A DNA stretch of 61,895 nucleotides, filler included. It is 6 parts of 6 records of this genome, joined end to end, with 100 filler letters (N's around TTAATTAATTAA, not from the genome) between each part and the next. Parts side by side here need not be neighbours in the genome. Positions count along the whole stretch, not along the records: positions 36,214 to 45,995 come from SRR31156797_12014; 5 more parts are not named here. One strand, given 5' to 3'. Below are positions 4,201 to 45,416 of the stretch, piece by piece. How positions within the stretch are numbered: position 1 is the stretch's first letter; the number at the start of each line of letters is the position of its first letter. The notes under the pieces were generated by a model. It made no database searches, was not told where the DNA came from, and worked only from the letters and a program-made list of their open reading frames with translations. The position numbers and the translations under genes are program-made.

Positions 4201-4376
4201 ACTCCGGAGGTGAGGCCTGATAAGATTCCGTAGACCCAGACGGCGGAGATTCCTGTCATGACCGCCAGAGCAACCAGAGTTAGGCCTTTCTGCAGTGAGG
4301 CTCCCGATTTTCTGAAGAGCCCCAGGAGGAATGCTGTTCCAAGGGCGGTGACAATGAGATAGATTGGATTTACCAT
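1230..4376 (-). CDS. Fused double MrpD/NuoL-M-N-type antiporter-like subunit (MbxH+H'-like)
   Basis: 1048 aa with two Proton_antipo-type repeats (DLFNLFVFIE..RLLGYSSIAQIG; FFLSWE..PLHIWLPGAH-like GLHIWLPGAHAEA..KRLLAYSSIGQMGY). Confidence 0.9.
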   Translation of the reverse strand: MVNPIYLIVTALGTAFLLGLFRKSGASLQKGLTLVALAVMTGISAVWVYGILSGLTSGVDIHTAGFAPPLSINLYMGRIEAILILLINLSALLSAFFFRPEKGKSPVYIFMLFLVFATGLNGVIMTRDLFNLFVFIEIVSIASAGLIALKSDLKQLGAGFKFVIAGALAGGLMLLGIIFTYTTYGSLNLDIIGGLTDTALTTTGFTGLFLVFIGIVMELKPFPVNGWGIDAYEASVPPVSAMVASGTATAMFYAFTKISAMTGGLFIQTAAFIGALTFVGMNILALKQEKVRRLLGYSSIAQIGLIVLAFSLVRLFSIENGDVIVFGLLITHALAKALLFWLSGIIKKESIHEWGVIRKKVILIAPFAVAVSALLALPPFPSFFAKWDLIMSLAAGGGRIWIAVILGGSLLEAVYLMRWFGNAYKDSFSETDSLDLRMGTIVPVFLFAALLPVLGYFSAGLSAFEMSFNWILLAAVAVLLLLDFLPAIVKNILAMGAIGYYGYPFMMNIGSYRSIFAMIFVIGALVTLLPGFGQRGRRKGFYPSAVLMFAGLIGIVEASDTLSFFLSWEIMTLGSYFLILRGKDSKPHALSYMLFSLGGAYLIMTGFGLTYAGTGAASISLETLKTVAGNPGAGIIYALMAVGFMTKMASAGLHIWLPGAHAEAETDVSPMVSGILLKAGVFGLLMLSITMGPQSIGIVSLPYILSWIGVITALVGNYMAAMQEDAKRLLAYSSIGQMGYALFAISFMNHLGWLAALSLSIVHFIYKVTLFLAVGGVAHRTGTKNMYQMGGLIKRMPISFFSVLVSIIALSGIPPLAGFSGKWITFNAVLEKGWMLQGAIAGTAGIIAFLYLFRLIFAIFLGQLKDNHRRVKEAPFFIILPQILLLGVVMFLSFFPGSFLRPIGEILKEFAVEGALVWEGNTALSQYGHWNGVAVMWTFMGLFGLFFIILTINGRKARMVKQFNIVFAAERPARPETTHFSYNFFAPVRKAVGFLEYPFTTRFWNWVSDLFHAIAGFFRRVYTGNGQTYLLQMLIFTVLAFALTKGGM

Positions 4377-11171: not shown

Positions 11172-11521
11172 TATTAATGACTTATTTCGGATTAGCACTG
11201 ATCGTGATCGGAATTTGGGGCATGTTGACCCAGAAGAATATCATCAAGATCATCATCGGGTTTTCCATTGTGGATACCGGTGTGCACATGGTCATGGTCT
11301 CGATCGGATACTTGAAAGACCGTACGGCGCCTATTCTTGACAAAAAAGAAATTATTGGCGATGCAGTAAATCAAGTTGTGGATCCCATTCCTTCGGCATT
11401 GGTCTTAACGGCCATTGTTATTGGACTGGCGGTCACGGCACTGATGCTGTCCTACGCGGTAAAACTATACCAGAAAAAAGGAACACTCGATATTAATGAG
11501 TACAAGGAGTTAAAATGGTAA
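11168..11521 (+). CDS. MrpC/MnhC-like antiporter subunit
   Basis: DPIPSALVLTAIVIG. Confidence 0.92.
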   Translation: MILMTYFGLALIVIGIWGMLTQKNIIKIIIGFSIVDTGVHMVMVSIGYLKDRTAPILDKKEIIGDAVNQVVDPIPSALVLTAIVIGLAVTALMLSYAVKLYQKKGTLDINEYKELKW

Positions 11522-14500
11522 ATCCTATCTACATTTTCATTCTTGCTCTGGGCGCTGCGTTCCTTTTATCACTTATTGATAAACTGGGACGAAAAGTCTC
11601 AATGACAATATTCTACGGAGTGCTGGCCGGAATGGCAGCTATCTCCATGCAGTGGCTTCTTGCCCTTTTGAACGGCACCGAAACCCTGATGATCTATACA
11701 GCCGGATTCAAGCCACCGTTCTCCATCAATCTACAGATGGGGATCGAAGAGGCATTCTTTACACTTGCTGTGAACCTGATGGGACTCCTTGTTGGATTCG
11801 TGATGCTGAAACAACTGGAGAAGACAAAAGCCAATGCCATGATCCTCTTCCTTATGATGATCATGGGGATCAACGGACTGATCATGACACGCGATATGTT
11901 CAACTTATTCGTGTTCATGGAGATCACCTCGATCTCTACCTTTGCCTTGATCGGTATCAATCGCGGACTTAGGTCACTGTCTGCAGGTTTCAAATATGTC
12001 ATCGCCGGCGGTATCGCGTCGATCTTCTTTTTGATCGGTACGATCTATCTTTATCGTTTTTCCGGTGTGCTGCATATTGATTCCATGATCGCTGCTGTTG
12101 ATGTTGCTTCTTCGCAGGCGACCTTCCTGGCGGTCTTTATTCTGTTAATGGCTATCGTGATCGAACTGAAGCCTTTCCCGGCGAACGGCTGGGCGCTGGA
12201 TGTTTATGAAGCTACCGACAGCAGTGTTACCTCCTTGGTGGCATCGGCTTCGGCAGCCGGAATGTTCTTTGCATTGCATAAGATCATGCCCCTGCTGAAC
12301 GACAGTTTGCTGCTAACAATGACAGGTGTGGGGCTTGTAACATTCGTGGCATCAAACCTGATGGGTCTAAAACAGGAAAATGCAAAACGACTTCTGGGCT
12401 ATTCTTCCATTGGGCAGATCGGCCTGGTCGTTGGAGTTTATACCTTATTAACCCAATTGGGATATGCTTCCACGGACAAGATCATTATTCTGATCGTTGG
12501 CGGCTTGTTCATCAATCACTTTATCGCCAAGGCCGGATTATTCTGGTTGGCGGGTGTAGTAAATAAAGAAAATATCAACGACTGGGGCGCGCTTCGTAAA
12601 AAGCCCATCATGCTTTTTGCATTCGGAGCTTTTGTTCTGGCCTTGGTCGGACTTCCGCCGCTGCCGGCATTTTTTGCCAAGTGGCAACTGGTAATGACCC
12701 TTGCCGCCGAGAACCAATTCCTGGTCATTGGCGCCGTGTTGCTCGGTACGCTTTTTGAAGCGGTCTATCTGATGCGCTGGCTGGGCAAGGTGATCAAAAG
12801 CGAGGTTGTTGAAGAGCTGAAAGTCGAATTTAACAAATGGTTGCCCATTGTGCTGATGGCCTTGACGATCATCGGATTGGGTGCCTTCACTGCAACTTAC
12901 GTCCCCGGTGGAGAAAGTCTGAAGATCTTCTACCTGCCTATGTTGTTGGTTGCAGCTCTTTTCATTCTCGATTTTCTGCCGGCATGGCTCAAGAATGCCA
13001 TCGTCATACTGGCGGTTTCTGCATACACATATATTAATCGTGGCGAAGTGGACGGCTACAGGATCATCTTCGGTATTGTTTTCCTCATCGGTACGGTTGT
13101 ACTTCTATTTCCCGGTTTCCACGTTAAAGGCAAACGTGCCGGATTCTATCCCTTTGTTGCCATGATGCTTGCAGGACTTGCCTGCATGCTGTTGGCCAAG
13201 AATACCCTGCAGTTCTTTACTGCCTGGGAATTGATGACACTGGGATCCTACTTTATGGTACTGAAAGGCAAGAAAGCTGAAAAGCCGGCATTGTCCTATT
13301 TAACCTTTGGATTGGGTTCAGCGTACGTCATGCTGATGGGACTGGGATTGTTCTCTTTCTCGAATGGCGGCAGTATGGAGTTAGCACTTCTTGGTGACCT
13401 GAATCCATACTCAACGACGATTTTCATCTTGATGTCAGTCGCGTTCCTGACGAAGCTGGCTATCATGGGTGTTCATGTCTGGCAGCCGGGAACCTATTCG
13501 GAAGCCGACGGCGATGTTTCGGCCATCCTTTCGGGTGTGCTGACCAAGGCCGGTGTTTTTGGCATGATGATCTTGCTTTTCTCAATTCAAAAACCCATGG
13601 TTGGAAATGTTGAAGTCCTTTACGTCTTGAGTTGGATCGGAGCACTGACCGCATTCCTGGGTAACACCATGGCCATTTATCAGGAAGATGTGAAAAAACT
13701 TCTCTCTTGGGCAAGTATCGGAGCTATGGGTTATGTGCTGTTCTCATTGAGCATGCAAACCTATCTTGGGTGGGTTACCTCTATTGCTTTTGCTTTGAAC
13801 CATTTCCTTTATAAGGGATTGCTCTTCATCACCGTAGCCGGTGTGATCTATCGCCTTAAAACACGCAATATGTATGAAATGGGCGGTATGATCAAAAAGA
13901 TGCCCATCTCATTCATTGCCATGCTTATGGGTATTATCGCTGTCTCCGGCGTTCCGCCGCTGTCAGGATATGCCGGCAAATGGATCAGCTTTAATGCTAT
14001 CCTTGAAACCGGTTGGTACCTGCAGGGCATCGTAATGTCCGTAGCCGGTGTGATCGCTTTCCTCTATCTGTTCCGCATGATCTATACGATCTTCCTGGGA
14101 CAGTTGAAAGACAATCACCGTCATGTAAAGGAAGCCCCGATCGGATTCATTATTCCTCAGCTGATCATGCTGGCGGCTATTATGGTCTTTTCGGTACGAC
14201 CCGGATTGATCCTGAAAACCTCCGGTGATTTTATCACTACCAGTTTCCCTGATAATGTTATTACTTGGGTAGACGGTACTGCTCATACGCAGTTCGGTTA
14301 CTGGAACGGCACCTGGGTAATGTTCGCTACAGCCGGTGTTTTTGGTTTCGCTTTCATTCTGCTGATGCTAATGAAACGTCGCAATACAGTGAAAGCCGGA
14401 CAGTTCAATATTGTGTATGCGGCCGAGCGTCCTTCACGTCCCGAACTGACCCATGTGGGTTACAATTTCTTTGCCCATTACCGCAGAGCACTTGGAACAT

Positions 14501-14661
14501 TTTCTCTGCCGATCATGCAGAAATTCTGGAAGGTGGTGGATGATGTTTTTCATTCCACTGCGGATACATTAAGAAAGATCTATACCGGAAACGGTCAAAC
14601 CTATCTTGTGCATATCATTGTCTTTGTGATGGTGGTTTATATCATAGCGATCGGAGGATAG
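11515..14661 (+). CDS. Fused double MrpD-type antiporter-like subunit
   Basis: 1048 aa, two antiporter repeats, collinear with 1230..4376. Confidence 0.9.
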   Translation: MVNPIYIFILALGAAFLLSLIDKLGRKVSMTIFYGVLAGMAAISMQWLLALLNGTETLMIYTAGFKPPFSINLQMGIEEAFFTLAVNLMGLLVGFVMLKQLEKTKANAMILFLMMIMGINGLIMTRDMFNLFVFMEITSISTFALIGINRGLRSLSAGFKYVIAGGIASIFFLIGTIYLYRFSGVLHIDSMIAAVDVASSQATFLAVFILLMAIVIELKPFPANGWALDVYEATDSSVTSLVASASAAGMFFALHKIMPLLNDSLLLTMTGVGLVTFVASNLMGLKQENAKRLLGYSSIGQIGLVVGVYTLLTQLGYASTDKIIILIVGGLFINHFIAKAGLFWLAGVVNKENINDWGALRKKPIMLFAFGAFVLALVGLPPLPAFFAKWQLVMTLAAENQFLVIGAVLLGTLFEAVYLMRWLGKVIKSEVVEELKVEFNKWLPIVLMALTIIGLGAFTATYVPGGESLKIFYLPMLLVAALFILDFLPAWLKNAIVILAVSAYTYINRGEVDGYRIIFGIVFLIGTVVLLFPGFHVKGKRAGFYPFVAMMLAGLACMLLAKNTLQFFTAWELMTLGSYFMVLKGKKAEKPALSYLTFGLGSAYVMLMGLGLFSFSNGGSMELALLGDLNPYSTTIFILMSVAFLTKLAIMGVHVWQPGTYSEADGDVSAILSGVLTKAGVFGMMILLFSIQKPMVGNVEVLYVLSWIGALTAFLGNTMAIYQEDVKKLLSWASIGAMGYVLFSLSMQTYLGWVTSIAFALNHFLYKGLLFITVAGVIYRLKTRNMYEMGGMIKKMPISFIAMLMGIIAVSGVPPLSGYAGKWISFNAILETGWYLQGIVMSVAGVIAFLYLFRMIYTIFLGQLKDNHRHVKEAPIGFIIPQLIMLAAIMVFSVRPGLILKTSGDFITTSFPDNVITWVDGTAHTQFGYWNGTWVMFATAGVFGFAFILLMLMKRRNTVKAGQFNIVYAAERPSRPELTHVGYNFFAHYRRALGTFSLPIMQKFWKVVDDVFHSTADTLRKIYTGNGQTYLVHIIVFVMVVYIIAIGG

Positions 14662-17983: not shown

Positions 17984-19771
17984 ATGGGTTATAAAGACGT
18001 TTTATCTCCCTTTGTAGCATGGAAGAATTTGGTCAAAGAACCGGTTTCCATCAAAAAGCCTCTCGAAAGAGAAGGCGCTCCGCGATACCGTGGATTCCAT
18101 ATGAACGATATGGAAAAATGTATCGGTTGCGGAACCTGTGAAGTGATCTGTCAAAATGCCACTATTGATATGGTGCCGGTTGAAGGCATCGAAACAAAAG
18201 ATGGTGACAGCGGGCTAAGGCCATTGTTTGACTACGGCCGCTGCTGTTGGTGTGCCCTTTGTGTGGATGTTTGTACAACAGGTTCGCTGACGATGAGCAA
18301 CGAGTTCAAATGGATCGATTCCGATCCGGATGTATTCCGATTTGTTGCCGGTGTGGACGAAAAGCCATGGGATAATAGCGAGCTTGGTTACAGGAAGCCC
18401 GATAATTTTGAGCTCTATGAACTTGAGCGCGTTCACATGGAAGAACTGAAACCCGGAGATCGTGATAGATCATTTATTGAGATCGTCAAAGGTTACTCAA
18501 AAGAACAGGCGATCAAGGAAGCCGACCGTTGCGTTTCCTGCGGGATCTGTATTGCAACCTGTCCGGCTCACATGGGTATTCCCCAATATATTGAAGCCGT
18601 ACGAAATGACGATATGGAAGAAGGTTTGAGGATCCTTTACGAGACCAATCCTTTGCCTGCCATTTGCGGTCGCGTTTGTACGCATAACTGTGAAACGGTC
18701 TGTGCATTGGGACATAAAGGTGATCCGCTTTCCATTCGCTGGTTAAAGCGTTATATTGCCGACCAGGTTCCAATCGAAAAATACAAAGAGATCCTGGGTG
18801 CAGATGCATTTGAACAGATGAATAAAAAAGTCGCGATCATTGGTGCCGGGCCGGGTGGTCTGTCTGCAGCCTATTATTTGGCAAACCTCGGTTACGAAGT
18901 CAAAGTGTTCGAAGCTATGGCCGAACCCGGAGGAATGACGCGTTACGGTATTCCTTCCTATCGCTTGCCATATGATCAATTGGATAAAGATGTTCAACAT
19001 ATCAAAGATCTTGGCGTTGAATTTGCTTTCAATACCCGGGTTGGAAAAGATGTCCCATTTGACAAATTACATAAAGACTACGATGCGGTTTTTGCGGCCA
19101 CAGGTCTTCATGATGGGCGATCCACCCGCGTAGACGGAACAGATCATCCCATGGTATTCCAGGCTGTGGATCTGCTTCGCGAGGTAACGGAAGGCAAGGA
19201 AATAGAAGTTGCCGAAAAAGTCGTTGTGATCGGCGGTGGTAATGTCGCCATGGATATCGCCAGAACAATGGCACGTCTTCAGAATAAGAAATATGGCAAA
19301 GTTCAATTGATCTTGACCTCTCTTGAAACTGAAGATATCATGCCGGCGGATCTTGAAGAGATCGTTGAATCTCGTGAAGAGAATGTCGTGATCGAAGACG
19401 GCTGGGGTCCAAAACTGATCGAGATCGAAGATGACAAGATCAAGGGACTGAAAGTTGTCCGCTGTTTATCGGTCTTTGATAAAAAAGGACATTTCAATCC
19501 GAAATTTGACAACAAAGATGAGAAATTCTTTGAAGCCGATATGGTTATAGAAGCGATCGGACAGGGAATGGATATCAGCTACATGAGCGAGATGCTAGGC
19601 AAGAAACTTGAAATGACGGAACGCAATCGTGTGAAGGTTGATACTTTCGCGCAGACTTCGGTTCCCTGGCTTTTCGTCGGTGGTGATATCATTGGCGGAA
19701 CCGATGCCATACAAGCTATTGCCGACGGTCATCGGGCTGCAAAAGGCATTGATAAATTCTTAAATAAGTGA
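17984..19771 (+). CDS. NuoI(MbxN)-GltD/NfnB-type FAD/Fe-S oxidoreductase fusion, copy 1
   Basis: RYRG + CIGCGTCEVIC + CCWCALCVDVC ferredoxin domain; RCVSCGIC...CP, CGRVC...CETVC, GAGPGG, GGGNVAMD, GGD. Confidence 0.9.
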   Translation: MGYKDVLSPFVAWKNLVKEPVSIKKPLEREGAPRYRGFHMNDMEKCIGCGTCEVICQNATIDMVPVEGIETKDGDSGLRPLFDYGRCCWCALCVDVCTTGSLTMSNEFKWIDSDPDVFRFVAGVDEKPWDNSELGYRKPDNFELYELERVHMEELKPGDRDRSFIEIVKGYSKEQAIKEADRCVSCGICIATCPAHMGIPQYIEAVRNDDMEEGLRILYETNPLPAICGRVCTHNCETVCALGHKGDPLSIRWLKRYIADQVPIEKYKEILGADAFEQMNKKVAIIGAGPGGLSAAYYLANLGYEVKVFEAMAEPGGMTRYGIPSYRLPYDQLDKDVQHIKDLGVEFAFNTRVGKDVPFDKLHKDYDAVFAATGLHDGRSTRVDGTDHPMVFQAVDLLREVTEGKEIEVAEKVVVIGGGNVAMDIARTMARLQNKKYGKVQLILTSLETEDIMPADLEEIVESREENVVIEDGWGPKLIEIEDDKIKGLKVVRCLSVFDKKGHFNPKFDNKDEKFFEADMVIEAIGQGMDISYMSEMLGKKLEMTERNRVKVDTFAQTSVPWLFVGGDIIGGTDAIQAIADGHRAAKGIDKFLNK

Positions 19772-20334: not shown

Positions 20335-22125
20335 ATGACGTTTAAAGATGTTCTCTCTCCTTTCCTGGCCTGGAAGAACCTGGTCAAAGAACCCGTGACT
20401 ATTAAAAAACCATTAGAGCGTAGAGGTGCACCCCGTTATCGCGGATTCCATATGAACGATATGGAAAAATGCATCGGCTGCGGGTCTTGTGAAGTAATTT
20501 GTCAGAATGCTACTATCGACATGGTGCCGGTTGAAGGTATCGAGACCAAAGACGGCGATAGCGGACTACGCCCTCTTTTTGATTACGGCCGTTGCTGTTG
20601 GTGTGCGCTGTGTGTGGATATTTGCACCACTGGTTCTCTGACCATGTCCAATGAATTTACGTGGGTCGACACGGATCCCGACGTATTCCGGTTTGTGGCC
20701 GGAGCGGACGATATGCCATGGAACAATGATGAGCTGGGATACAAAAAACCTGATAATTATGAATTAAATCCCCTGAAACATGTTAAGATGGATGAATTGA
20801 CAGCCGAAGAACGCGAAATGTCTTTTCTTGAAGTCGTCAAAGGTTATTCCAAAGAACAAGCCATGGCAGAAGCTGACCGTTGTGTTGCTTGCGGTATTTG
20901 TATTTCAACTTGTCCTGCTCACATGGGCATTCCCCAATACATCAAAGCCATTCGTGATGACGATATGGAAGAAGGCTTACGTTTGCTTTATGAAACCAAC
21001 CCCATGTCTGCAGTTTGCGGTCGTGCCTGCACTCACCGCTGCGAAGATGTATGTGCCACGGGCTATAAAGGCGACCCTATTTCCATTCGCTGGCTGAAAC
21101 GTTATATCATTGATCAGGTGTCACCCGAAAAGATCCCGGAGATCTTAAAGCCCATAGCAGAATCCAATGGTAAAAAAATATCGATCATCGGAGCCGGGCC
21201 GGGTGGTTTGACCGCAGCATATTATTTGGCATTGATGGGTTACGATATCAGCATATTTGAAGCAAAAGATAAAGCCGGAGGCATGTTACGCTACGGTATT
21301 CCCGAGTATCGTCTGCCCTACGATCAATTGGATAAAGATATTGATTATATCCTATCGCTGGGTGTTAAGATCCATTACAATACTCCCATCGGAAAAGATG
21401 TCAAATTCAACAAACTGATGGAAGATTCGGAAGCAGTTTTCTGTTCCACCGGTATGGATGTTCCCTATACAATGGGACTTGACGGTGAAGAAGGTAATGA
21501 GCATATCATGTCCGGACTCGACGTGCTTGATGATGCTACGCGAGGAAATGAACCTCGATTTGGTAAGTCAGTTGTTGTGATCGGTGGCGGATCTACCGCG
21601 ATGGATGCGGCAAGTACGGCTCGTCGTTACGGTGCTGAAGCAACGATACTATATCGCCGGCGCGAAGAAGATATGCCCGCAGAATTGGATGAAATAGACG
21701 ATGCTAAAGTAGAGGGTGTAAATATTATTACTCAGGCAATCCCGGTAAAGATCGAAAATGCCGAAAACGGGCAAGTCAAGATGATCTGGAATAAAGCGGA
21801 AATGGTAAGCGAAGGTCCGGGCAAACGACCCAAACCGGTTCCCATTGAAGGTGATATCCACGTAACTCAAGTTGATACCATTGTACCGGCTATTGGACAA
21901 TCGGCGGATTTTTCATACATGCCGAAAGATGTTGTTGATAAACTTGAATTCAAATGGGGCAAGCTCAAGACTGACCTGTTCGGGCAAACAGCCATCCCCA
22001 AACTATTTGCCGGCGGCGATATTGTTAATCCTACTGCTGACGCCATCACTGCAATCGCTGATGGACATCGGGCAGCGAAAGGAATTGATAGATATCTTCA
22101 AGGCAAAAGATGCGCTGAGCTCTGA
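20335..22125 (+). CDS. NuoI(MbxN)-GltD/NfnB-type FAD/Fe-S oxidoreductase fusion, copy 2
   Basis: Same architecture as 17984..19771; GGGSTAMD and YRR. Confidence 0.9.
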   Translation: MTFKDVLSPFLAWKNLVKEPVTIKKPLERRGAPRYRGFHMNDMEKCIGCGSCEVICQNATIDMVPVEGIETKDGDSGLRPLFDYGRCCWCALCVDICTTGSLTMSNEFTWVDTDPDVFRFVAGADDMPWNNDELGYKKPDNYELNPLKHVKMDELTAEEREMSFLEVVKGYSKEQAMAEADRCVACGICISTCPAHMGIPQYIKAIRDDDMEEGLRLLYETNPMSAVCGRACTHRCEDVCATGYKGDPISIRWLKRYIIDQVSPEKIPEILKPIAESNGKKISIIGAGPGGLTAAYYLALMGYDISIFEAKDKAGGMLRYGIPEYRLPYDQLDKDIDYILSLGVKIHYNTPIGKDVKFNKLMEDSEAVFCSTGMDVPYTMGLDGEEGNEHIMSGLDVLDDATRGNEPRFGKSVVVIGGGSTAMDAASTARRYGAEATILYRRREEDMPAELDEIDDAKVEGVNIITQAIPVKIENAENGQVKMIWNKAEMVSEGPGKRPKPVPIEGDIHVTQVDTIVPAIGQSADFSYMPKDVVDKLEFKWGKLKTDLFGQTAIPKLFAGGDIVNPTADAITAIADGHRAAKGIDRYLQGKRCAEL

Positions 22126-29250: not shown

Positions 29251-30765
29251 TTATGCGCCTTCGTTATACATCTCTAAGTTAGCGAGATCTTGCTGAATTT
29301 CACGTTGAGTTTTCGCATCATCACCGCGCATCGACTCAAGATAATCCAAGTACTGCTGATCGATATCACCCGTTACGTATTCACCGTTAAACACTGACGA
29401 TTCAAACTTAGCAATGTCTTGGTTACCTACACGTACTGCATCTTCAAGATCTTCGATGGTTTGGAAAATCAGTGCATCCGCGCCAATTTGCTTACAGATA
29501 TCTGCATTATCACGGCCATGAGCAATCAGTTCGTTTGCCGTTGGCATATCAATACCATACACGTTCGGGAAACGAATCTCAGGCGCTGCTGAAACCATAA
29601 ATACTTTTGCCGCGCCAGAATCACGAGCCATCTCAATGATCTGCTCAGACGTTGTACCGCGAACGATGGAATCATCAACAAGCAGTACATTCTTGTCTTT
29701 GAATTCTGAACGAATCGCGTTTAGCTTGCGACGGACAGACTTCTTACGCTGTTGCTGACCAGGCATGATAAACGTACGACCCACATAGCGATTCTTTACA
29801 AAACCTTGGCGGTATGGCTTGTCGATAGCTTGAGCAATTTGCAACGCAATATCACATGATGTTTCAGGGATAGGAATAACCACGTCGATATCCAGATCAG
29901 CAAACTCACTCTTAATGCGGTCACCAAGACGTTTACCCATTTCAACACGAGCACTGTATACAGAGATTTTGTCGATGAAAGAATCAGGACGAGCAAAGTA
30001 AACAAACTCGAAAATACACGGCGTTAATGTTGGATTGTCAGCACATTGCTTGGTAAATAACTCCCCTTCAAATGTCGCATAAATTGCTTCACCAGGAGCT
30101 ACGTCACGGACGAAATCAAAACCAACAGCATCAAGTGCTACTGATTCAGAGGCAACCATATATTCTGTGCGACCATTCACTTCACGCTTACCAAGGCAAA
30201 GTGGACGAATACCATTTGGATCGCGGAAAGCAATCATGCCATGACCGATGATCATCGCGGTTACCGCATACGCGCCACGAATAGTACGATGAACATTGGC
30301 AACAGCTCGGAATACGTCTTCAGAAGTAACATTACCTCTTACAGTATCAATCTCATGGGCCAATACATTCAACAACACTTCAGAATCTGAAGTTGTGTTG
30401 ATGTGACGGCGATCTTTTTCAAACAACTTTTCACGCACAACATTTGCGTTAGTTAAGTTGCCGTTGTGAGCCAGAGTAATACCGAACGGTGAGTTTACGT
30501 AAAATGGCTGAGCTTCCGATGCACTAGAGCTGCCTGCCGTTGGGTAACGAACGTGCCCAATGCCGACAGTACCTTGAAGGCGCTGCATGTGTTTGGCTTC
30601 AAATACATCTTTGACTAAACCGTTAGCCTTACGCAGACGAAAACGATTGCTTTCGATGGTACAAATACCAGCGGCATCTTGGCCACGATGCTGCAATACC
30701 GTTAAAGCGTCATAGATAGACTGGTTTACAGGGGTTGTGCCCACGATTCCAACAATACCACACAT
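29251..30765 (-). CDS. purF: amidophosphoribosyltransferase
   Basis: MCGIVG Ntn start, [16 protein letters not shown]. Confidence 0.98.
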
Positions 30766-31897: not shown

Positions 31898-33163
31898 TTA
31901 TTCTCCTTTATTTTTCCAGTGCTCAAGCACTTCGCCTACCGTATGGAATGATCCGGCAACCACTATGACATCTTCCGGCTGTGCACGTGTCAACGCACTT
32001 TCAAATGCCTGAACAGGATTAGAGTATTCGGTTTGTCCATCCGCCAGATGTTGACATAGTTCAGAGGCTGATGCGGCTCTGTCACCCGATAGAGAAGCGG
32101 GATACCAATTATCGACAACCGGCGTTAATGCTTCTATCGTTGCTTCAATGTCTTTGTCATGCAGCATTCCAATTACCATGTGCAGACAACGATTCGCATA
32201 ACGCTGGTTGATTTGAGAGGTAAGGTATTGTGCAGAATGAGGATTATGCGCCACATCCAGAATAATGGTTGGTTGATGGCTAACAATCTGCATACGGCCA
32301 GCAAGTGTCGCCTTACGTAGACCCTCAACAATATTAATATCACTCAACTCTAATCCAGAAGCCCCTAAAGCCATAAGAGCGGTTGCCGCATTAGCAAGAG
32401 GAAAAGCAGGTACTGGTAGATCAGTGAGCTCAAATGGCCCGCTGTGCCATTTCCACAACGTGTCCGAAACCAGTTCATAATCAAACTGAATGCCGACTTG
32501 ATAAAAGTCTGCTCCAATATCATCAGAATGGGCGGCAACGGTCGAAGGTGGCTTAGGCTGCCCACAAATAGCGGGTTTGCCACAACGGAAGATACCCGCT
32601 TTTTCAAAGCCGATAACGTTAATATCGTCACCCAGCCAGTCAACGTGATCGACAGCCAAGCTAGTAATAACCGAGACGTCATGATCAACGACATTGGTTG
32701 CATCTAAACGCCCACCAAGACCAACTTCGAGTAGTACCACGTCAACTTTCTCTGTTTGGAAGAGACGTAACGCGGCCAGAGTGCCAAACTCAAAAAAGCT
32801 CAGACTGATATCACCGCGAACTTGCTCGATATAGGCAAAAGCGGCGGTATGCTGCTCATCAGACGCATCAGCGCCATTGATACGGACACGTTCGTTATAA
32901 CGAATCAAATGTGGGGAGCTGTACACTCCGACCGAGTAACCAGCGTCAAGAAGAATGCTTTCCATTAAAGCGCAGGTGGAGCCTTTACCATTTGTTCCGG
33001 CCACAGTAATAACTGTCGGTGCTGGTTTCGTAAGAGAGGCTTTAGTCGCTACTGCTGCAACGCGGTCTAGACCTAAATCGATAGCAGAGGTGTGGATATG
33101 AGTTAAATAATCAAGCCACATCGATAGTGGAGATGTGGCTTGAGGAGTTGGGTTGTACTTCAT
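31898..33163 (-). CDS. folC: dihydrofolate synthase/folylpolyglutamate synthase
   Basis: VAGTNGKGST, LEVGLGGRLDATN, LDVAHN. Confidence 0.97.
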   Translation of the reverse strand: MKYNPTPQATSPLSMWLDYLTHIHTSAIDLGLDRVAAVATKASLTKPAPTVITVAGTNGKGSTCALMESILLDAGYSVGVYSSPHLIRYNERVRINGADASDEQHTAAFAYIEQVRGDISLSFFEFGTLAALRLFQTEKVDVVLLEVGLGGRLDATNVVDHDVSVITSLAVDHVDWLGDDINVIGFEKAGIFRCGKPAICGQPKPPSTVAAHSDDIGADFYQVGIQFDYELVSDTLWKWHSGPFELTDLPVPAFPLANAATALMALGASGLELSDINIVEGLRKATLAGRMQIVSHQPTIILDVAHNPHSAQYLTSQINQRYANRCLHMVIGMLHDKDIEATIEALTPVVDNWYPASLSGDRAASASELCQHLADGQTEYSNPVQAFESALTRAQPEDVIVVAGSFHTVGEVLEHWKNKGE

Positions 33164-39995: not shown

Positions 39996-41561
39996 CTAGC
40001 CTTTTCTCAACAAAGGTCTTTCGTTCTTGGAAGCCCTGTTCACAGCGCGCATTACGTTATCGGAATCACCTGCGGGCACGGTGAAGGTGGACTGGCGTCC
40101 CTGAATCTTCACGTGCTGGATGCGTACGGGATTGATGCGTGCGCGGCGGCAGATCATATCTACCAGTTTACGCGGGGTCATGCCGTGGGAGCGACCTACG
40201 CCTGCGGTGAAGCGTACGCGGCCACGGTTAGCATTGGGTCCGCCGCATTCTTCGATCTTGCGGTAGCTGCGTTTATCGAGAACGCCGCCCTGAGAATGCT
40301 TGAGCAGTGCTGCAACAGCTTCAATAGGATCAACGCCTTCGAGCAGTTCGTGAGCGAGGTCGAGGTAGGAAAGATGCTTGCCTGCATCAACAATCTCGCT
40401 CAGCTCAGCGCCCATGCGGGATTTTTTCACATCGATAACCTGATCAATGGTCGGCAGTGGCTTCTTGTCTACACGGAGCTTGGTTACTTTAGTGATGTAA
40501 CGCAGCTTACCGAATTCACGGGGTGAAATCAGAGTTACAGCAACACCTTTTTTGCCGGCACGACCAGTACGGCCAACGCGGTGTACAAAGCTCTGCGGGT
40601 CCTGCGGCAGTGCAAAGTTAACAACGTGGGAAAGATCGGGAACGTCGATACCACGGGCAGCAACGTCAGTAGCCACGAGGATTTTACAGCGGCGTTTGCG
40701 GAAACGCATGAGGATATCTTCGCGGCGGGCCTGTGAAAGATCACCGTGAATAGGCTCAGCAGGGTAGCCGCGCTCAGCAAGGGTTCCGGCTACGCGGTCG
40801 GCATCAGCACGGGTGCGGCAGAATACCAGGCCGTAGAACTCGGGCTGTGCATCAACAACACGGCAGAGTGCTTCAAAGCGGTCACGCTCGTTGACTTCGT
40901 GAAAAAGGAGTTCGGTGAGCTGTGCTTCGTCTTTTTCGCGCTTAACTGCGATGACATCGTAATCACCCATGAATTTCTTGGCGATACGCATGACTTCGGG
41001 AGGCATGGTAGCGGAAAAGAGCAGGGTGCGGCGATCTTCGCCAGCATTTTCCATGATCTCGGATACTTCTTCAAGGAAGCCCATGTTGCACATTTCGTCA
41101 GCTTCATCGAGGACGAAGTTGTTGATCTGGGAAAGGTTGAGGGTCTTGCGGCGGATGTGGTCCAGTACACGGCCGGGAGTACCGACAACGATGTCTGCAC
41201 CGCGTTTGAGGGCTTTCAGCTGCGGAAGCATAGGCTGTCCGCCATAGACGGTGGCAACGAAAATTTTGCGTTTGCCGCGGAAAGACATGATCTCATCTGC
41301 AACCTGAAGAGCCAGTTCGCGAGTCGGAGCCAGAACAATAGCCTGAACATGTCCTGCGCCTTCGCGGATATTTTCAATAATAGGCAGGCCGAAAGCTGCG
41401 GTCTTACCTGTTCCGGTCTGGGCCTGACCCACAATGTCTTTCTCGCCGGAAAGAAGCATGGGGATAGTCTTTTCCTGAATAGGGGTAGGAGCGGTAAAAC
41501 CTTTTTTTTCAAGGGCTTCAATAGTGGCGTCGGAAAGGCCTAAATTTCTAAATTTTTCCAT
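39996..41561 (-). CDS. DEAD-box RNA helicase with C-terminal DbpA-type RNA-binding domain (DeaD/CsdA-like)
   Basis: Q motif, AQTGTGKT, PTRELA, DEAD, SAT, HRVGRTGRAG; C-terminal RFTAGVGRSHGMTP..LV...I.HVKI...STF.VP. Confidence 0.95.
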   Translation of the reverse strand: MEKFRNLGLSDATIEALEKKGFTAPTPIQEKTIPMLLSGEKDIVGQAQTGTGKTAAFGLPIIENIREGAGHVQAIVLAPTRELALQVADEIMSFRGKRKIFVATVYGGQPMLPQLKALKRGADIVVGTPGRVLDHIRRKTLNLSQINNFVLDEADEMCNMGFLEEVSEIMENAGEDRRTLLFSATMPPEVMRIAKKFMGDYDVIAVKREKDEAQLTELLFHEVNERDRFEALCRVVDAQPEFYGLVFCRTRADADRVAGTLAERGYPAEPIHGDLSQARREDILMRFRKRRCKILVATDVAARGIDVPDLSHVVNFALPQDPQSFVHRVGRTGRAGKKGVAVTLISPREFGKLRYITKVTKLRVDKKPLPTIDQVIDVKKSRMGAELSEIVDAGKHLSYLDLAHELLEGVDPIEAVAALLKHSQGGVLDKRSYRKIEECGGPNANRGRVRFTAGVGRSHGMTPRKLVDMICRRARINPVRIQHVKIQGRQSTFTVPAGDSDNVMRAVNRASKNERPLLRKG

Positions 41562-41874
41562 GATATTTTATCTCTCTAAATGCAGTAAATATAAAAGTTG
41601 TATTAAAAAGGGCAAAAAAACAGAGCAGCGCGCTCCAGTTCTCAGCTGGGCGCGTGTTTGATTCCCATTTCAGCTATTCCGGTTTTATAAAAATCGGTTC
41701 GTGTATTCTTAATTGCTGGCAAAAGTACAGCAATGCAAAGCAGCGCGCGAATTTCGCGGTCTGTTTCGGGATATTCCGGTCTGGCGGAAAAGGGGTGAAA
41801 AACAATGCAATACCTGCCCCTTAAACGCAGGGGAGGTTTGTAGCTACCGTAATAAATGTCCGGTATTTTTTGGA

Positions 41875-42104
41875 GGGACCGTCCGGTTATCTCGATCTAC
41901 TTAAGGAGGGGTAAAACTCATCAAGGGCAGATCGTACTTTCTCCTGAAACAGCAAGGCGAACTGCCTGCATAACTGGTCCCAATCTTCTAATTAGGTCTC
42001 AGGGGAATCGTCACATAAGGACGATGTACGAAACAGGTACACTGCCCTTGCAATTAAAAACTCGGGTCTCTCTGGACCCAAAACAACCGGATATGGACGG
42101 ACGC
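41875..42104 (-). ncRNA. candidate structured RNA of unknown family upstream of the DEAD-box helicase
   Basis: At least seven nested helices; G-U bias favours the minus strand; promoter-like element directly upstream (see findings). Confidence 0.65.
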
Positions 42105-42109
42105 GAGAA

Positions 42110-42139
42110 GCCTTAAGCACCGAATGGGGGTTGGGTCAA
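42110..42139 (-). promoter_or_regulatory. putative sigma70 promoter for the structured RNA/helicase leader
   Basis: TTGACC-18nt-TAAGGC on minus strand; predicted start ~42104 falls at the 5' end of the closing helix. Confidence 0.45.
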
Positions 42140-42244
42140 GGGTTTTCTTTTGGGAGGAGGTGTTGACATTATTGATTTGTGTTTTATTTTTTTGTCTATA
42201 TTTACTTGTCTTTAAAATATCGCACAAAAAAAGGAGGTGTTGAT

Positions 42245-42667
42245 ATGAGTGATAAAGTTGTTGCAGGCGTAGTCTTGTCAGGAAATTCTTGTCGGATTGT
42301 ATCTGTGAGTGGAAGTAAGGATTCTCATGAGGTTTTAGATGTGAAAACAAATAAAATTGAGATAAATATAAATCCTTCAAGTTCTGATGTGTCAACCTTC
42401 GTAGATTCTTTTCAAGAATACTGTGATGCGAATCGTATTGAAAAGATTGTGTTTAATAAAAGAATGTCCAAAGGAAAAATGGCCAGTAGTGGCGAGTCCT
42501 TTATCATGGAAGGAGCTATTTTGGCTTCTACCTCAGTTGAAGCTGAGAGGGTGCATTCTAAAACGATACAAGCTACAGAGAAGAAGTGTGGTGAGTTGAA
42601 AACAGAGAAACCGACAACCTCAGCTTTAGGCAAGGCATATGATTTAGCATTTGAGGGATTAGAATAG
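42245..42667 (+). CDS. DUF3010-like protein
   Basis: GV.LSG, R..KGK.ASSG.SF.MEG pattern; start ATG 42245 after AGGAGG. Confidence 0.7.
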   Translation: MSDKVVAGVVLSGNSCRIVSVSGSKDSHEVLDVKTNKIEININPSSSDVSTFVDSFQEYCDANRIEKIVFNKRMSKGKMASSGESFIMEGAILASTSVEAERVHSKTIQATEKKCGELKTEKPTTSALGKAYDLAFEGLE

Positions 42668-42671
42668 TTAC

Positions 42672-42703
42672 AAAAAAAGCCGCGACTCCCGCCGCGGCTT
42701 TTT
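42672..42703. terminator. bidirectional intrinsic terminator
   Basis: A7-GCCGCG-loop-CGCGGC-T5 between convergent genes. Confidence 0.85.
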
Positions 42704-42731
42704 ATTTTCAATTCTCTAATCTTCCCCAAAC

Positions 42732-45416
42732 TTACCCGCAAGTAGTATACCCGCAAGCCTTGCAAATCTTGCATCCACCCTCAGGGACGTATGCTTTCTT
42801 GCTGCACTCAGGGCAGCGATCTCCGAGACCTTTGGAGACGATGGTCTGGTCATCCATGTCCAGAGATATGTACTGGCGCAGGATGCGGGAGATGATTGCT
42901 GCTGCATCGATGATGTTGTAGCTGGAGCGGTCCAGCTGGGTCAGGATGCGGTCGATGGGCATGCCTACTCGCAGGAGCATGCTGGTCAGGCGGGTGATGG
43001 TTTCCCAGAGGGAGTATTTTTCCTGAAAGACCTGTTCATTGTAGAATCCATCTCCGGTCATTCCGGCTTCCTTGGGCAGCTTAACGAATATTTCAATGGG
43101 GTTGCCGGAATCATCCAAGGATACGATGATGTACATCTTGGAACCCTTCCACATAACCCGGTGCCGTTCGGCGCGTTCAATATCTCCGAGCTCCCTTTCA
43201 ACTAAGGTCGGGTTCTGGCCCAGCATGGTCGGATCGGATTCTTTGGGTTCCTCTTTCTTGCTCAGCACACCTTTTTTGCAGCCGTTGCGGAAAACTGTCA
43301 CACCCTTGAGGCCGTTCTTCCATGACTCAAGGTAGATTTTGAATATGGTTTCCTTGGGTGTTTCCTCGGCAAGGTTGATGGTCGAGGAAATGGAGCTGTC
43401 AGTGTATTGCTGGATTGCGGCCTGCATGCGGATGCGGTCCATGTAGTCCAGTTCATCGGCCTGCACGTAATTCAGCTTTTCCTTAAGCTGCTGGGCGGTG
43501 TATTTGCCAAACAGATGCTCCTGATTGGTCTCAAGCATCCATTTCAGCGGAGGCATGTGGATGAACTCGAATATCTTACCGGCTTCCAGTCTTGTTTCAC
43601 GGGCATAGCTGAACATGAAAACAGGTTCGATGCCTGAGGTGCAGTTGTCGGACATGATGGAAATGGAACCGGAAGGTCCGACGGTGTTGAATGCGGTGTG
43701 GCGCAGCCCGGTTTTCAGGATTTTCTTTTGCAGTTTTTTGGGCAACTCAAGATTGCTGATGTACGGGCATTCCAGAAAATGGTGGCGTGCATCCTTCTCT
43801 TTCAGGGCTTCGACTTCACCGAACCGCTCGGCGATGTCCGCACTTACGGAGATTTCAGTGATGGCCTTATTGCGCATGATTTCTTTGATGAAATCAATGG
43901 ATTCATTGCTGCCGTAGCGCATGCCCAGCATGGCCAGCATATCGCCCAGTCCGGTGAACTCAATACCGATCCGTTTGCCGTACTTGTCTGCGTTCCTGTG
44001 TTTCTGCAGAGGATGCTTGTTCTGGTTAAGGTCGGACATGGTGTCCATGAAGGCCATGGTCCGGGTCAGGTCATCGTGGAAAAGTTCGCTGTCGAAACGT
44101 GCTTCCTTGGTGAAGGGGTTAACCACGTAACGATATAAAACCATGGCTCCGAGCAGGCAGTTGCTCCAGTAGCCAAGCGCCTGTTCACCGCAGGGGTTGG
44201 TGGACATGGGCTTGAGGCGCAGGGGATCGATGTATGTGCCGGGGGTGTTGCGCTGAGTGGTGTCCTGATAGAGGATGCCCGGATCACCGGATTTCCATGC
44301 GGATTCGCTGATTTCTTCCAGCAGTGCCCGGGCGCTGACGGTCTCATAATCCTTGAGGGGAAGTTCCAGCTCCTGCCAACGGCTGTAGTCGCCGTCCCAG
44401 AGGGTGTTGTAAACGGATTTCACCGGATCGAAGATGTCGGATGTTTCGTTACGCCGTCTGGCGAGGGTAAAGGTCAGGTTCTCTTCGGCAAGGACAGCGC
44501 TACCGTCATTTGTCGGAAGGTCCGGCTGTACTTTGATCCGGTTCTTCTTGGGATCAATTTCGATGACGTTGTAAATTATTTCCGCTTCGATGCGATCTCC
44601 GACCTGCGGATTCAGGGCTTCGTATACTTCTGGCAACAGTTGCAGGGTTGATTCATCAATGATTTTGCCGCTGATTTTGAATCTGTCCGGGAAAATAAAG
44701 GTCCAGTCCTTATCATTCTCTACTGCCTGCATGAATTCATCAGTGACTTTAAGGCTGATGTTCGCACCGAATACGTCCTGAACTTTTCCAGTCAGTGAAT
44801 CCACACCGAAAATTTCTTCGGGCTTGCTTTTGCACCAGATGAAACGGCGGGTTTCAGGGTGTCTGATGTCCATAGAGATCATCAGCGCGCCGCGTCTACC
44901 GTTCTGCCCGATAGTATTGGTCAGTTCGCTGAAAAGGGGCATGAAGCTTACAGCACCGGAAGAGGTCACCGCAGCATTGTTTACCGGGTCCCCGGAAGGA
45001 CGTAGGATGGTGATGTCGATGCCGCTTCCGCCACGGTAGGAGTAAGTGCGGGCCAGTTTCTTCTGGGCTTCGAAGATACCTTCAAGTGAATCTGATTCTA
45101 TCTTAGCCAGATAGCAGTTGCTGAGCGAGCATTTGGCGTGCTCATTTCCGAGGCCGGAAAGTATGGAGCCCGCGGGGATAAAACGCCCGGACTGGAGCAT
45201 TTCGCAGACCTGTTCATTCTCGTTATTTTCGAAGCGGGAATGTTTTAAGTATTCACGGCAAAGTCTGTTCTTTACGTCATTGAATGAGTGTTCCTGAAGA
45301 CGTCCTTTGCGGTCACGGATCTGATATTTTTTGGAACTGACGGTTTCTTGAAAACGGGTATGTTCTTCCAGGGCCATTTTGGCTGATTCTCGGGTGATAA
45401 CAGATTGTTCAGTCAT
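42732..45416 (-). CDS. nrdJ: class II (adenosylcobalamin-dependent) ribonucleotide reductase
   Basis: SLSNCY, GRRGALM, NPCGEQ, GPSGSIS..TSGIEP, SISSTINL; C-terminal TSCPD-like domain and CPEC..C..CGYTTCG tail; no nrdB or nrdG neighbour. Confidence 0.88.
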   Translation of the reverse strand: MTEQSVITRESAKMALEEHTRFQETVSSKKYQIRDRKGRLQEHSFNDVKNRLCREYLKHSRFENNENEQVCEMLQSGRFIPAGSILSGLGNEHAKCSLSNCYLAKIESDSLEGIFEAQKKLARTYSYRGGSGIDITILRPSGDPVNNAAVTSSGAVSFMPLFSELTNTIGQNGRRGALMISMDIRHPETRRFIWCKSKPEEIFGVDSLTGKVQDVFGANISLKVTDEFMQAVENDKDWTFIFPDRFKISGKIIDESTLQLLPEVYEALNPQVGDRIEAEIIYNVIEIDPKKNRIKVQPDLPTNDGSAVLAEENLTFTLARRRNETSDIFDPVKSVYNTLWDGDYSRWQELELPLKDYETVSARALLEEISESAWKSGDPGILYQDTTQRNTPGTYIDPLRLKPMSTNPCGEQALGYWSNCLLGAMVLYRYVVNPFTKEARFDSELFHDDLTRTMAFMDTMSDLNQNKHPLQKHRNADKYGKRIGIEFTGLGDMLAMLGMRYGSNESIDFIKEIMRNKAITEISVSADIAERFGEVEALKEKDARHHFLECPYISNLELPKKLQKKILKTGLRHTAFNTVGPSGSISIMSDNCTSGIEPVFMFSYARETRLEAGKIFEFIHMPPLKWMLETNQEHLFGKYTAQQLKEKLNYVQADELDYMDRIRMQAAIQQYTDSSISSTINLAEETPKETIFKIYLESWKNGLKGVTVFRNGCKKGVLSKKEEPKESDPTMLGQNPTLVERELGDIERAERHRVMWKGSKMYIIVSLDDSGNPIEIFVKLPKEAGMTGDGFYNEQVFQEKYSLWETITRLTSMLLRVGMPIDRILTQLDRSSYNIIDAAAIISRILRQYISLDMDDQTIVSKGLGDRCPECSKKAYVPEGGCKICKACGYTTCG

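Follow-up and report, generated by a model that had tools for sequence, protein, structure and literature searches.

What occupies the 683-nucleotide (nt) gap (41562-42244) between the gene for a DEAD-box RNA helicase and a divergent DUF3010 gene in the DNA analyzed here? The window, i.e. the whole stretch of 61,895 nt to which all coordinates refer, filler included, had received an initial annotation made from its letters alone, which placed a multi-helix RNA at 41875-42104, had it transcribed on the minus strand toward the helicase, and proposed a cis-regulatory leader or a small RNA (sRNA). We found that the gap holds a structured RNA under selection, in which compensatory base changes exceed those of controls, and the two roles proposed at the outset are still the right pair of options. 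The probability that the element is a cis-acting leader of the helicase mRNA is put at roughly one in two. In this reading it was inherited from an ancestral unit in which a gene for an RNA-binding protein (rbp) preceded the helicase, and its fold would govern either passage through two terminator-like hairpins further downstream, here called T1 and T2, or the stability of the mRNA.

Is there a fold at all? On the minus strand the 230-nt stretch folds at -76.4 kcal/mol, compared with -58.5 +/- 4.6 kcal/mol for 200 dinucleotide shuffles, none of which did as well (z -3.86); the plus strand gave a z of -3.27. Covariation was assessed with a covariance model, R1, of 231 positions and 59 pairs, to which 26 homologues (24 distinct sequences) were re-aligned. 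Among the distinct sequences, 96.1% of 1411 cells are paired, and two-sided, i.e. compensatory, changes were found in 14 of the 59 pairs (52 cells). The covariation score reached 0.147 vs 0.086 in shuffles, and none of 500 shuffles equalled the observed value on four out of five measures, while 367 did so on the fifth (further pair types). When the 3' partners were moved by 1-3 columns, just 26-44% of the cells were paired. This alignment was fitted to R1; the raw MAFFT alignment had 11 pairs with compensatory change and 94.0% of its cells paired. The structured RNA proposed at the outset is thus real, and covariation among homologues upstream of orthologous helicases, on which that proposal depended, is present. 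All of the helices that the initial annotation listed occur, position for position, in the minus-strand sequence, and RNAalifold, run on the 26 sequences, recovered most of the same architecture, including helices P2 and P3. Wobble positions had been said to work mostly on the minus strand, and alternation between G-C and G-U and between U-A and U-G is indeed common (13:11 and 13:10, respectively). As it works on the minus strand only, the RNA is read on that strand. The elements of the core are as follows (bp, base pairs).

41873-42103, minus strand: core RNA domain of 231 nt with multiple helices (model R1, 272 bits; covariation)
42100-42097 with 41882-41879, minus strand: closing helix P1a, 4 bp, invariant, 100% of cells paired
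42090-42083 with 41890-41883, minus strand: closing helix P1b, 8 bp, 100% paired, 1 pair compensatory
42082-42061, minus strand: hairpin H2, 8 bp, variable in sequence, 6 of 8 pairs compensatory
42050-42042 with 41930-41922, minus strand: helix P2, 9 bp, 98.6% of cells paired
42031-42026 with 41937-41932, minus strand: helix P3, 6 bp, 100% of cells paired
42009-42023, minus strand: hairpin P4 (CGUC/GACG), stem invariant in 24 of 24 distinct sequences
42004-41996 with 41950-41942, minus strand: helix P5, CCUGAGAC/GUUUCAGG, 5 of 9 pairs compensatory
41995-41980 and 41969-41952, minus strand: hairpins P5a and P5b inside P5, 1 compensatory pair each

Some of these helices had been drawn differently. 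A closing helix of 12 bp had been described, of which the outer 8 bp stand as P1b, with a double change from U-A to C-G in 2 of the 24 distinct sequences. The inner 4 bp are broken in 6-7 of the 24, and their bases extend H2 instead, where three of the pairs form in 22-24 of 24 sequences and the fourth in 18 of 24. H2 occurs in variants such as GGGUC/GACCC, GAACC/GGUUC and GAUUCUG/CAGAAUC. Similarly, the hairpin given as AUCGUC/GACGAU was kept in its CGUC/GACG part, i.e. P4, while the outer remainder is not conserved; the P4 loop varies in both length and sequence. P2 and P3 enclose the inner domain. In P2 (CAAGGGCAG/CUGCCCUUG) the only changes are between G-C and G-U, plus one mismatch, and in P3 five of the six pairs never vary, the remaining one showing a single G-C/G-U change. 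With no compensatory pair in P1a, P3 or P4, and with CGUAC/GUACG and CGUC/GACG invariant, covariation neither supports nor refutes these parts of the proposed fold. Its support falls on P1b, on H2, on P5, where e.g. CCUGAAAC/GUUUCAGG alternates with CUUAGAAC/GUUCUAAG, and on the two hairpins that P5 encloses. Three invariant GUAC words permit alternative pairings in the P2/P3 region, and one alternative, CGAUCU with AGAUCG, is itself invariant and would compete with P2 and P3 in a way that covariation cannot distinguish. Conservation does not extend to the P5b loop (AGUUC, AAUUC, a shorter loop, AAAAGAA or ACCCC). A resemblance of this loop to the hairpin in 23S rRNA to which DbpA-type domains bind had been considered; mimicry of that hairpin was ruled out on that ground.

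The initial annotation did not recognize any known RNA in the sequence, and database searches agree. None of the 4227 models of Rfam 15 matched anywhere in the window at the gathering level. At E <=10, the region 41400-42400 yielded four junk matches, the best of them inside the RNA being a C/D-box snoRNA model (12.5 bits, E 7.3), and at E <=1 nothing was found inside the RNA at seven diverse homologous loci. ARAGORN reported no tRNA or transfer-messenger RNA (tmRNA) gene in 41000-43000. The accompanying remark that the stem-bubble-stem outline is also 6S-like has to be given up. One drawing of the fold does show such an outline, and the element shares with 6S RNA (RF00013) its size class, a promoter of its own and high conservation within a clade. 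Nevertheless, the 6S model had no match (E <=10 in 41400-42400, E <=1 in seven other copies), the consensus fold branches, at three points in R1, instead of forming a rod with a central bubble, and the element is limited to one clade. Furthermore, a separate canonical 6S locus was found in five out of five RNA-bearing genomes tested, with 96-111 bits against a cut-off of 46.4. Membership in the 6S family is thereby refuted, and the chance that a 6S-like RNA binding RNA polymerase, or some other disguised housekeeping RNA, is at hand is negligible.

How far does the element extend among bacteria? In a DNA search of 391 Desulfovibrionaceae genomes, 24 had a match, namely 23 with a full-length copy (71-98% identity, one copy each) and one (G1037) with a 27-nt match of 93% identity that lies outside any rbp gene and was taken as chance. 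An R1 search of 151 relatives of the closest genome likewise found a single copy in each of 24 genomes (188-275 bits) and no further match at E <=0.01; the scores of the 25 homologues cover the same 188-275 bits. Among 33 metagenome loci encoding relatives of the helicase, the RNA was found only in the two closest, L043 (95% amino acid identity) and L044 (89%). Aligned with these two, the window hardly varies between the -35 box and about 41845, and its flanks have diverged; one hairpin carries three compensatory changes. The comparative set comprises 27 copies, and R1 separates them cleanly from everything else searched. The nearest named homologues of the window helicase belong to Maridesulfovibrio spp. 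(77-84% identical), with Pseudodesulfovibrio at about 60%, and, with the label taken from such helicase identities, the RNA appears to be specific to a Maridesulfovibrio-like clade of marine sulfate-reducing bacteria.

Within this clade the link to the helicase is constant. At 25 out of 25 homologous loci the helicase lies downstream in the same orientation, separated by 225-272 nt from the conserved block, an arrangement that agrees with the proposed direction of transcription and is the same-strand, fixed upstream position that a cis-acting leader has to its regulated gene. The upstream neighbor, in turn, is variable, with DUF3010 at one of the 25 loci. Identity to the window, measured over 10 loci, was 70-99% for the core (92% vs L044), 74-91% for the first 1200 nt of the helicase (81% vs L044) and 61-94% from the end of the core to the ATG, while the upstream 300 nt were only 48-54% identical, i.e. 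at random level. The core is thus conserved about as strongly as helicase coding DNA. No conserved open reading frame (ORF) was found on either strand of 26 copies; the longest measure 17-107 amino acids (aa) for the RNA strand and 19-118 aa for its complement, with varying frame, start and length. An 86-aa ORF on the plus strand (41856-42116) was rejected as coding, with no Pfam match and no counterpart kept in the homologues. A hammerhead-like word, UGAUGAG, was dismissed since it is not conserved.

The promoter, the helicase and the region between the core and the helicase start, the latter read from the alignment together with RNAalifold, contain the following features.

42111-42150, minus strand: promoter of the RNA, with an A-rich stretch at 42150-42141, a -35 box TTGACC at 42139-42134, and TGCTTAAGG at 42119-42111 with an unusual -10-like TAAGG
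41845-41865, minus strand: hairpin P6 (UACCG/CGGUA), stem invariant in 26 of 26 sequences
41798-41844, minus strand: T1, terminator-like hairpin with a C-rich 5' and a G-rich 3' arm and, after it, a U-rich tail; found in 26 of 26 sequences
41655-41797, minus strand: second conserved region with several hairpins, whose sequences differ by lineage with pairing kept; 61-94% identical across the clade
41610-41654, minus strand: T2, a hairpin rich in GC that covaries between lineages (41654-41646 with 41638-41629), then a U run at 41620-41614
41588-41615, minus strand: possible helicase promoter, TTGCCC-16 nt-TATATT, 9 of 12 matches in a scan, uncertain
39996-41561, minus strand: DEAD-box RNA helicase of DeaD/CshA type, 521 aa, with Pfam DEAD, Helicase_C, DeaD_dimer and DbpA domains

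For the helicase, the top NCBIfam match was CshA, with a score under the family cut-off. The promoter-like element that had been noticed at the 5' end is well conserved, with CTTGAC (42140-42135) and TGCTTA (42119-42114) invariant or nearly so in all 26 sequences, and was not called by a simple sigma-70 scan of the window. Transcription of the RNA would start at about 42105-42103 on the minus strand. The -10-like TAAGG lacks the usual final T of sigma-70 promoters, and is yet kept across genera together with CTTGAC; such CTTGAC...TAAGG promoters may form a class for a particular sigma factor or condition. Similarity to relatives stops at 42149-42151, just 5' of the promoter, both in the homologues and in contigs from four sequencing runs, each of which goes on into different sequence beyond that point. 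Parts of the stretch are contained in 18 sequencing-run rows, from which four runs were compared, all as assembled contigs.

Downstream, the conserved transcript region runs about 310 nt further than the stretch considered initially, via the two terminator-like hairpins, to the helicase start. T1 varies in its outer stem and has A-rich and U-rich extensions; a terminator scan called it in one homologue (L096), not in the window or in L092. An invariant CACCCC separates T1 from the hairpins of the second conserved region, and these conserved, covarying hairpins restart within about 10 nt of the U-rich tail of T1 and extend to T2. Because this leaves no room for a separate promoter, we infer that T1 is read through, at least part of the time. 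T2 was called by the terminator scan at 41637-41621, and RNAalifold pairs its U run with an upstream A-rich stretch. Its hairpin loop (about 41640 in the window) holds an extra insertion of about 55 nt in L043, L080 and L084. TTGCCC (41615-41610) is near-invariant, and a -10-like word at the right spacing after it was seen by eye in some homologues only. The word UGCCCUU occurs twice, namely in the 3' strand of P2 (41922-41930) and in the invariant tail after T2 (41609-41615). By eye, both copies could pair with the 5' strand of P2 (42042-42050), a possible long-range alternative pairing. One 7.9-kb contig of a metatranscriptome library spans the RNA and the helicase; it extends beyond the two and could be DNA.

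A riboswitch-like sensor, whose closed domain would bind a small molecule or ion and control termination at T1, could be built in a similar way: the core is shut by a helix, branches and keeps many of its junction bases invariant, the peripheral hairpins vary, and a terminator-like hairpin comes directly next. We find this improbable, since the element occurs in a single clade and at a single gene, inspection by eye revealed no alternative anti-terminator, helicases are not usual riboswitch targets, and coding sequence seems to be the source of part of the invariant core (see below).

A more serious competitor is an RNA that acts in trans and stands alone, its approximately 300 nt beginning at the 42104 promoter and ending with T1 near 41798, so that the helicase would be no more than its neighbor. 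Such an RNA, being rbp-derived, could keep sites for RRM proteins or the helicase and act as a decoy or scaffold, and intact rbp paralogues are in fact found elsewhere in the genome in four of four RNA-bearing genomes tested (2-3 in each). Its own conserved promoter, the conserved hairpin with a U-rich tail directly after the folded domain, the possible separate promoter of the helicase and a core conserved like a protein-coding gene all suit it too. What makes it unlikely, albeit still worth serious consideration, is that the RNA has turned up only beside the helicase (25 of 25 loci, one copy per genome) and that conserved RNA structure resumes right after T1 with no promoter between. In addition, no conserved single-stranded seed was seen, the C-rich CCUCC of the 3' bubble not being conserved. 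An anti-Shine-Dalgarno sRNA, considered for that same CCUCC, was ruled out, as the word becomes CCCACC, CCCGCC or something unrelated in other lineages.

From where, then, did the putative leader come? The same RNA was sought upstream of helicases that are about 60% identical, and was rejected there: the best R1 match had 15.3 bits (E 0.0066) and the core motifs were absent. These weak matches led to the finding of rbp. G995, a neighbor of the clade with a 68% identical helicase, has no copy of the RNA; its helicase is preceded, on the same strand, by a gene encoding an RNA-binding protein of RRM type (88 aa). This gene has a CTTGAC promoter, about 150 nt of 5' untranslated region (UTR) and a terminator. 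By tblastn, 14 loci that lack the RNA have rbp ahead of the helicase in the same orientation, namely L121 and 13 metagenome loci (helicases about 60% identical). At E 1e-5 rbp was found neither in the 24 RNA-bearing loci searched (L079-L101 and L120) nor in the window. No intact rbp reading frame with RNP2 and RNP1 motifs exists at the RNA loci. The slot of the RNA is thereby that of rbp by position, i.e. upstream of the helicase on the same strand, with a similar terminator and a promoter similar by eye. A likeness to a former RRM-protein gene together with its leader goes beyond what had been proposed for the element, and is centered on the following segment.

41873-42004, minus strand: segment collinear with rbp between its ribosome-binding site and roughly codon 43, as aligned by MAFFT for four RNAs and six rbp genes

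Several comparisons point to common descent. An RNA profile (nhmmer) matched the start of the rbp coding sequence in L051 with E 6.4e-5, and five more loci with E <0.01, in 81 kb. A core-only profile run on 551 kb had a best E of 5e-4, and 9 of the 13 listed matches were rbp starts. The terminator of rbp in L121, which T1 resembles, was matched by the RNA profile with E 0.0027 and 0.00067. In several lineages a relic frame reads ..KVRSAF.., compared with ..EVRTAF.. in rbp, and the rbp promoters of related genera, CTTGAC-N17-(G)TAAGG, have by eye the same unusual -10-like word as the RNA promoter. Shuffle tests between RNA and rbp, in 16 pairs, gave z values of 5-6.6 in three and 2-3 in five. 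Taken together with the shared position, and set against the contrary tests given further on, they make descent of the RNA from the helicase-linked rbp gene probable, short of proof.

The rbp genes of Pseudodesulfovibrio-like loci (L046, L047, L048, L050, L051, L054, L057-L059 and L064) have in common a conserved 5' UTR, some 200 nt long, in which several blocks are conserved. It had no Rfam match in four of those loci, and may be a structured leader family of its own.

If rbp lost its frame, the RNA could simply be a decaying pseudogene without function at the RNA level, conserved through recent common ancestry, and both the lost ORF and the persisting rbp-like remnants would follow. This explanation is very hard to reconcile with an upstream flank at 48-54% identity next to a core at 70-99%, with compensatory change in 14 pairs, and with one copy kept in all of the 24 clade genomes found, and we consider it highly improbable.

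The preferred reading, a cis-acting leader, can be set out in steps. The ancestor was probably an rbp-helicase unit, in which the same kind of promoter preceded a long 5' UTR and the frame of the 88-aa RRM protein, with a terminator and then the helicase after them. In the RNA clade the rbp frame was probably lost, while the old 5' UTR and the first approximately 43 codons were retained and now pair with each other. The CTTGAC...TAAGG promoter would start minus-strand transcription near 42104, and the first 231 nt would form the branched domain, its two ends joined by the closing helix. Beyond the core, the transcript would run through the small hairpin P6, T1 (near 41800) and T2 (near 41620) to the helicase start at 41561. 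The leader fold may then set the amount of transcription that passes T1 and T2, or the stability of the read-through mRNA, and helicase synthesis could thereby be coupled to RNA-folding conditions, e.g. cold, the activity of the helicase itself or binding of an RRM protein.

We also offer, tentatively, a more specific and rather doubtful version of these events. Here, rbp lost its frame at the base of the clade, and its 5' UTR and about 43 codons became the two halves of a new fold, kept under a constraint like that of a protein gene and serving as a sensor that links RNA chaperones to helicase output. The fold may still be recognized by paralogous RRM proteins or by the DbpA-type RNA-binding domain of the helicase. 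If true, this would be a rare bacterial exaptation of a gene into an RNA, with the ancestral state still visible in sister lineages.

A number of observations weigh against the cis-acting leader, or against parts of it. Regarding the fold, most compensatory cells trace to a few deep splits, i.e. to few independent events, and with P2, P3, P4 and P1a invariant or nearly so, much of it rests on energy alone. Regarding termination, T1 looks like an ordinary terminator, which fits a stand-alone RNA of about 300 nt equally well, and an alternative anti-terminator pairing for T1 or T2 was not found by eye, no systematic search having been run. The possible helicase-only promoter would make the upstream RNA dispensable for helicase expression, and the assembled contigs of the four runs cannot show transcript ends, strand or level. 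Regarding the origin from rbp, z was below 2 in 8 of the 16 shuffled RNA-rbp pairs, and about 0 for some. In two strict local tests 33 of 500 shuffles were as good, and a global alignment of the whole unit with L121 was no better than shuffles (100 vs 91.7 +/- 9.6). A reciprocal profile search gave equally good chance matches inside the helicase gene on the opposite strand (E 0.00084), and a low-threshold protein comparison found 102 segments on the opposite strand vs 53 on the RNA strand. Lastly, an R1 search of rbp paralogue loci gave nothing above 9.5 bits, so that rbp loci were not detected.

What is already known is the kind of thing, a structured leader or small RNA beside a helicase; what is new is the fold, that it is limited to a single clade, and that it probably arose from a coding gene. 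Bacterial RNAs of at least 230 nt with a complex fold outside the described families are uncommon, and this one has a clear genetic partner. Among cold-shock mRNA leaders, the 5' UTR of cspA acts as a thermosensor, and RRM RNA-binding proteins are a cold-induced class in cyanobacteria. Like the cspA-type leaders, the window RNA would be a long, structured leader on a gene of the RNA-chaperone and helicase cold response, the ancestral gene here encoding an RRM protein. Unlike them, no cold-box-like motif was identified in it, and it no longer precedes its original coding sequence. Bacterial sRNAs from degraded protein-coding genes offer another parallel, being former coding sequence that is transcribed and retained as RNA. 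To our knowledge such cases are young and poorly conserved, whereas the window RNA persists throughout a clade, and its complex fold has support from covariation. A search of the literature on pseudogene-derived RNAs returned no bacterial case.

The closest counterpart in gene arrangement is deaD (csdA) of Escherichia coli, whose 838-nt 5' UTR, in the part of the published account drawn on here, mediates negative autoregulation by way of the stability of the mRNA and Rho-dependent termination (Ojha and Jain 2020, PMC7430678). In both systems a stretch of several hundred nt, the leader in E. coli and the putative leader here, precedes a DeaD-type helicase gene, and control would be exerted at termination within it, as described in the same part of that account for E. 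coli (PMC7430678) and conjectured here. The window helicase has the same domain set as E. coli DeaD, i.e. DEAD, Helicase_C, DeaD_dimer and DbpA. They differ in that Rho-dependent termination and mRNA decay operate in E. coli, according to the same portion of the text (PMC7430678), while two hairpins resembling intrinsic terminators are the candidates in the window. Furthermore, unlike the deaD leader, the window leader seems to descend from a protein-coding gene. The likeness is one of gene arrangement, with no sequence or structure relationship expected, and regulation by the window RNA is suggested by analogy. If the element is a helicase leader, it would be the second system for self-control of a DEAD-box helicase after E. 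coli deaD, and structurally a far better defined one.

The evidence is of the same kind as in the motif surveys of Weinberg et al. (2010, PMC2864571; 2017, PMC5737381), as far as their main texts go, namely a conserved intergenic block, covariation and a fixed gene neighbor. Those main texts (PMC2864571 and PMC5737381) contain neither "Desulfovibrio" nor "DEAD", and their sole mention of "helicase" concerns comFA; their supplements could list a motif that is absent from Rfam. No paper with both "Maridesulfovibrio" and "RNA helicase" was found, and literature searches on small RNAs of Desulfovibrio, the helicase of D. hydrothermalis, helicase-linked RNA motifs, and RRM together with cold shock in Desulfovibrio returned nothing on the window RNA. 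The motifs of the two surveys are presumably in Rfam, where the window RNA has no match. If the origin from rbp is true, the states before (rbp-helicase) and after (RNA-helicase) both exist in cultivable, non-pathogenic relatives, and the conversion of a coding sequence into a functional RNA would thereby be directly testable.

On the other side of the promoter lies the divergent gene that bounds the gap.

42245-42667, plus strand: DUF3010 gene, divergent from the RNA (Pfam E 2.4e-32)

Its distribution is patchy; the nearest relatives are at most 49% identical and mostly from Shewanella, with single matches in Desulfotalea, Paraburkholderia, Azonexus and Fundidesulfovibrio. A link of the RNA to DUF3010 was ruled out, as 34 loci with DUF3010 relatives (mostly Shewanella, <=49% identity) had no similarity to the intergenic gap of the RNA and the gene occurs at just one of the 25 RNA loci. 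The window and L088 are the only places where it adjoins the RNA promoter, and it thus has the look of an insertion at a boundary prone to recombination. Another sign of a variable upstream boundary is the tRNA gene in L089 (1355-1438, plus strand, 48.3 bits), about 60 nt upstream of the RNA promoter.

Elsewhere in the window, PurF (29251-30765, minus strand) is 72% identical to PurF of a Shewanella genome, and FolC (31898-33163, minus strand) scores 574 bits on the E. coli-type FolC equivalog model. A gammaproteobacterial origin of the RNA, prompted by these two genes, was rejected: the RNA search of 401 genomes of the class gave three matches of 25-28 nt (E 0.003-0.007), taken as chance, and the helicase search of 401 genomes of a gammaproteobacterial order gave none at E 1e-140. 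Helicase and RNA place the window in the Desulfovibrionaceae, unlike the gammaproteobacterial-looking PurF and FolC. The window also contains two copies of a 1048-aa fused NuoN/NuoM-like membrane subunit (1230-4376, minus strand; 11515-14661, plus strand) and two of a 595-aa GltD-like iron-sulfur flavoprotein (17984-19771 and 20335-22125, both plus strand), which suggests a duplicated respiratory or antiporter-type module.

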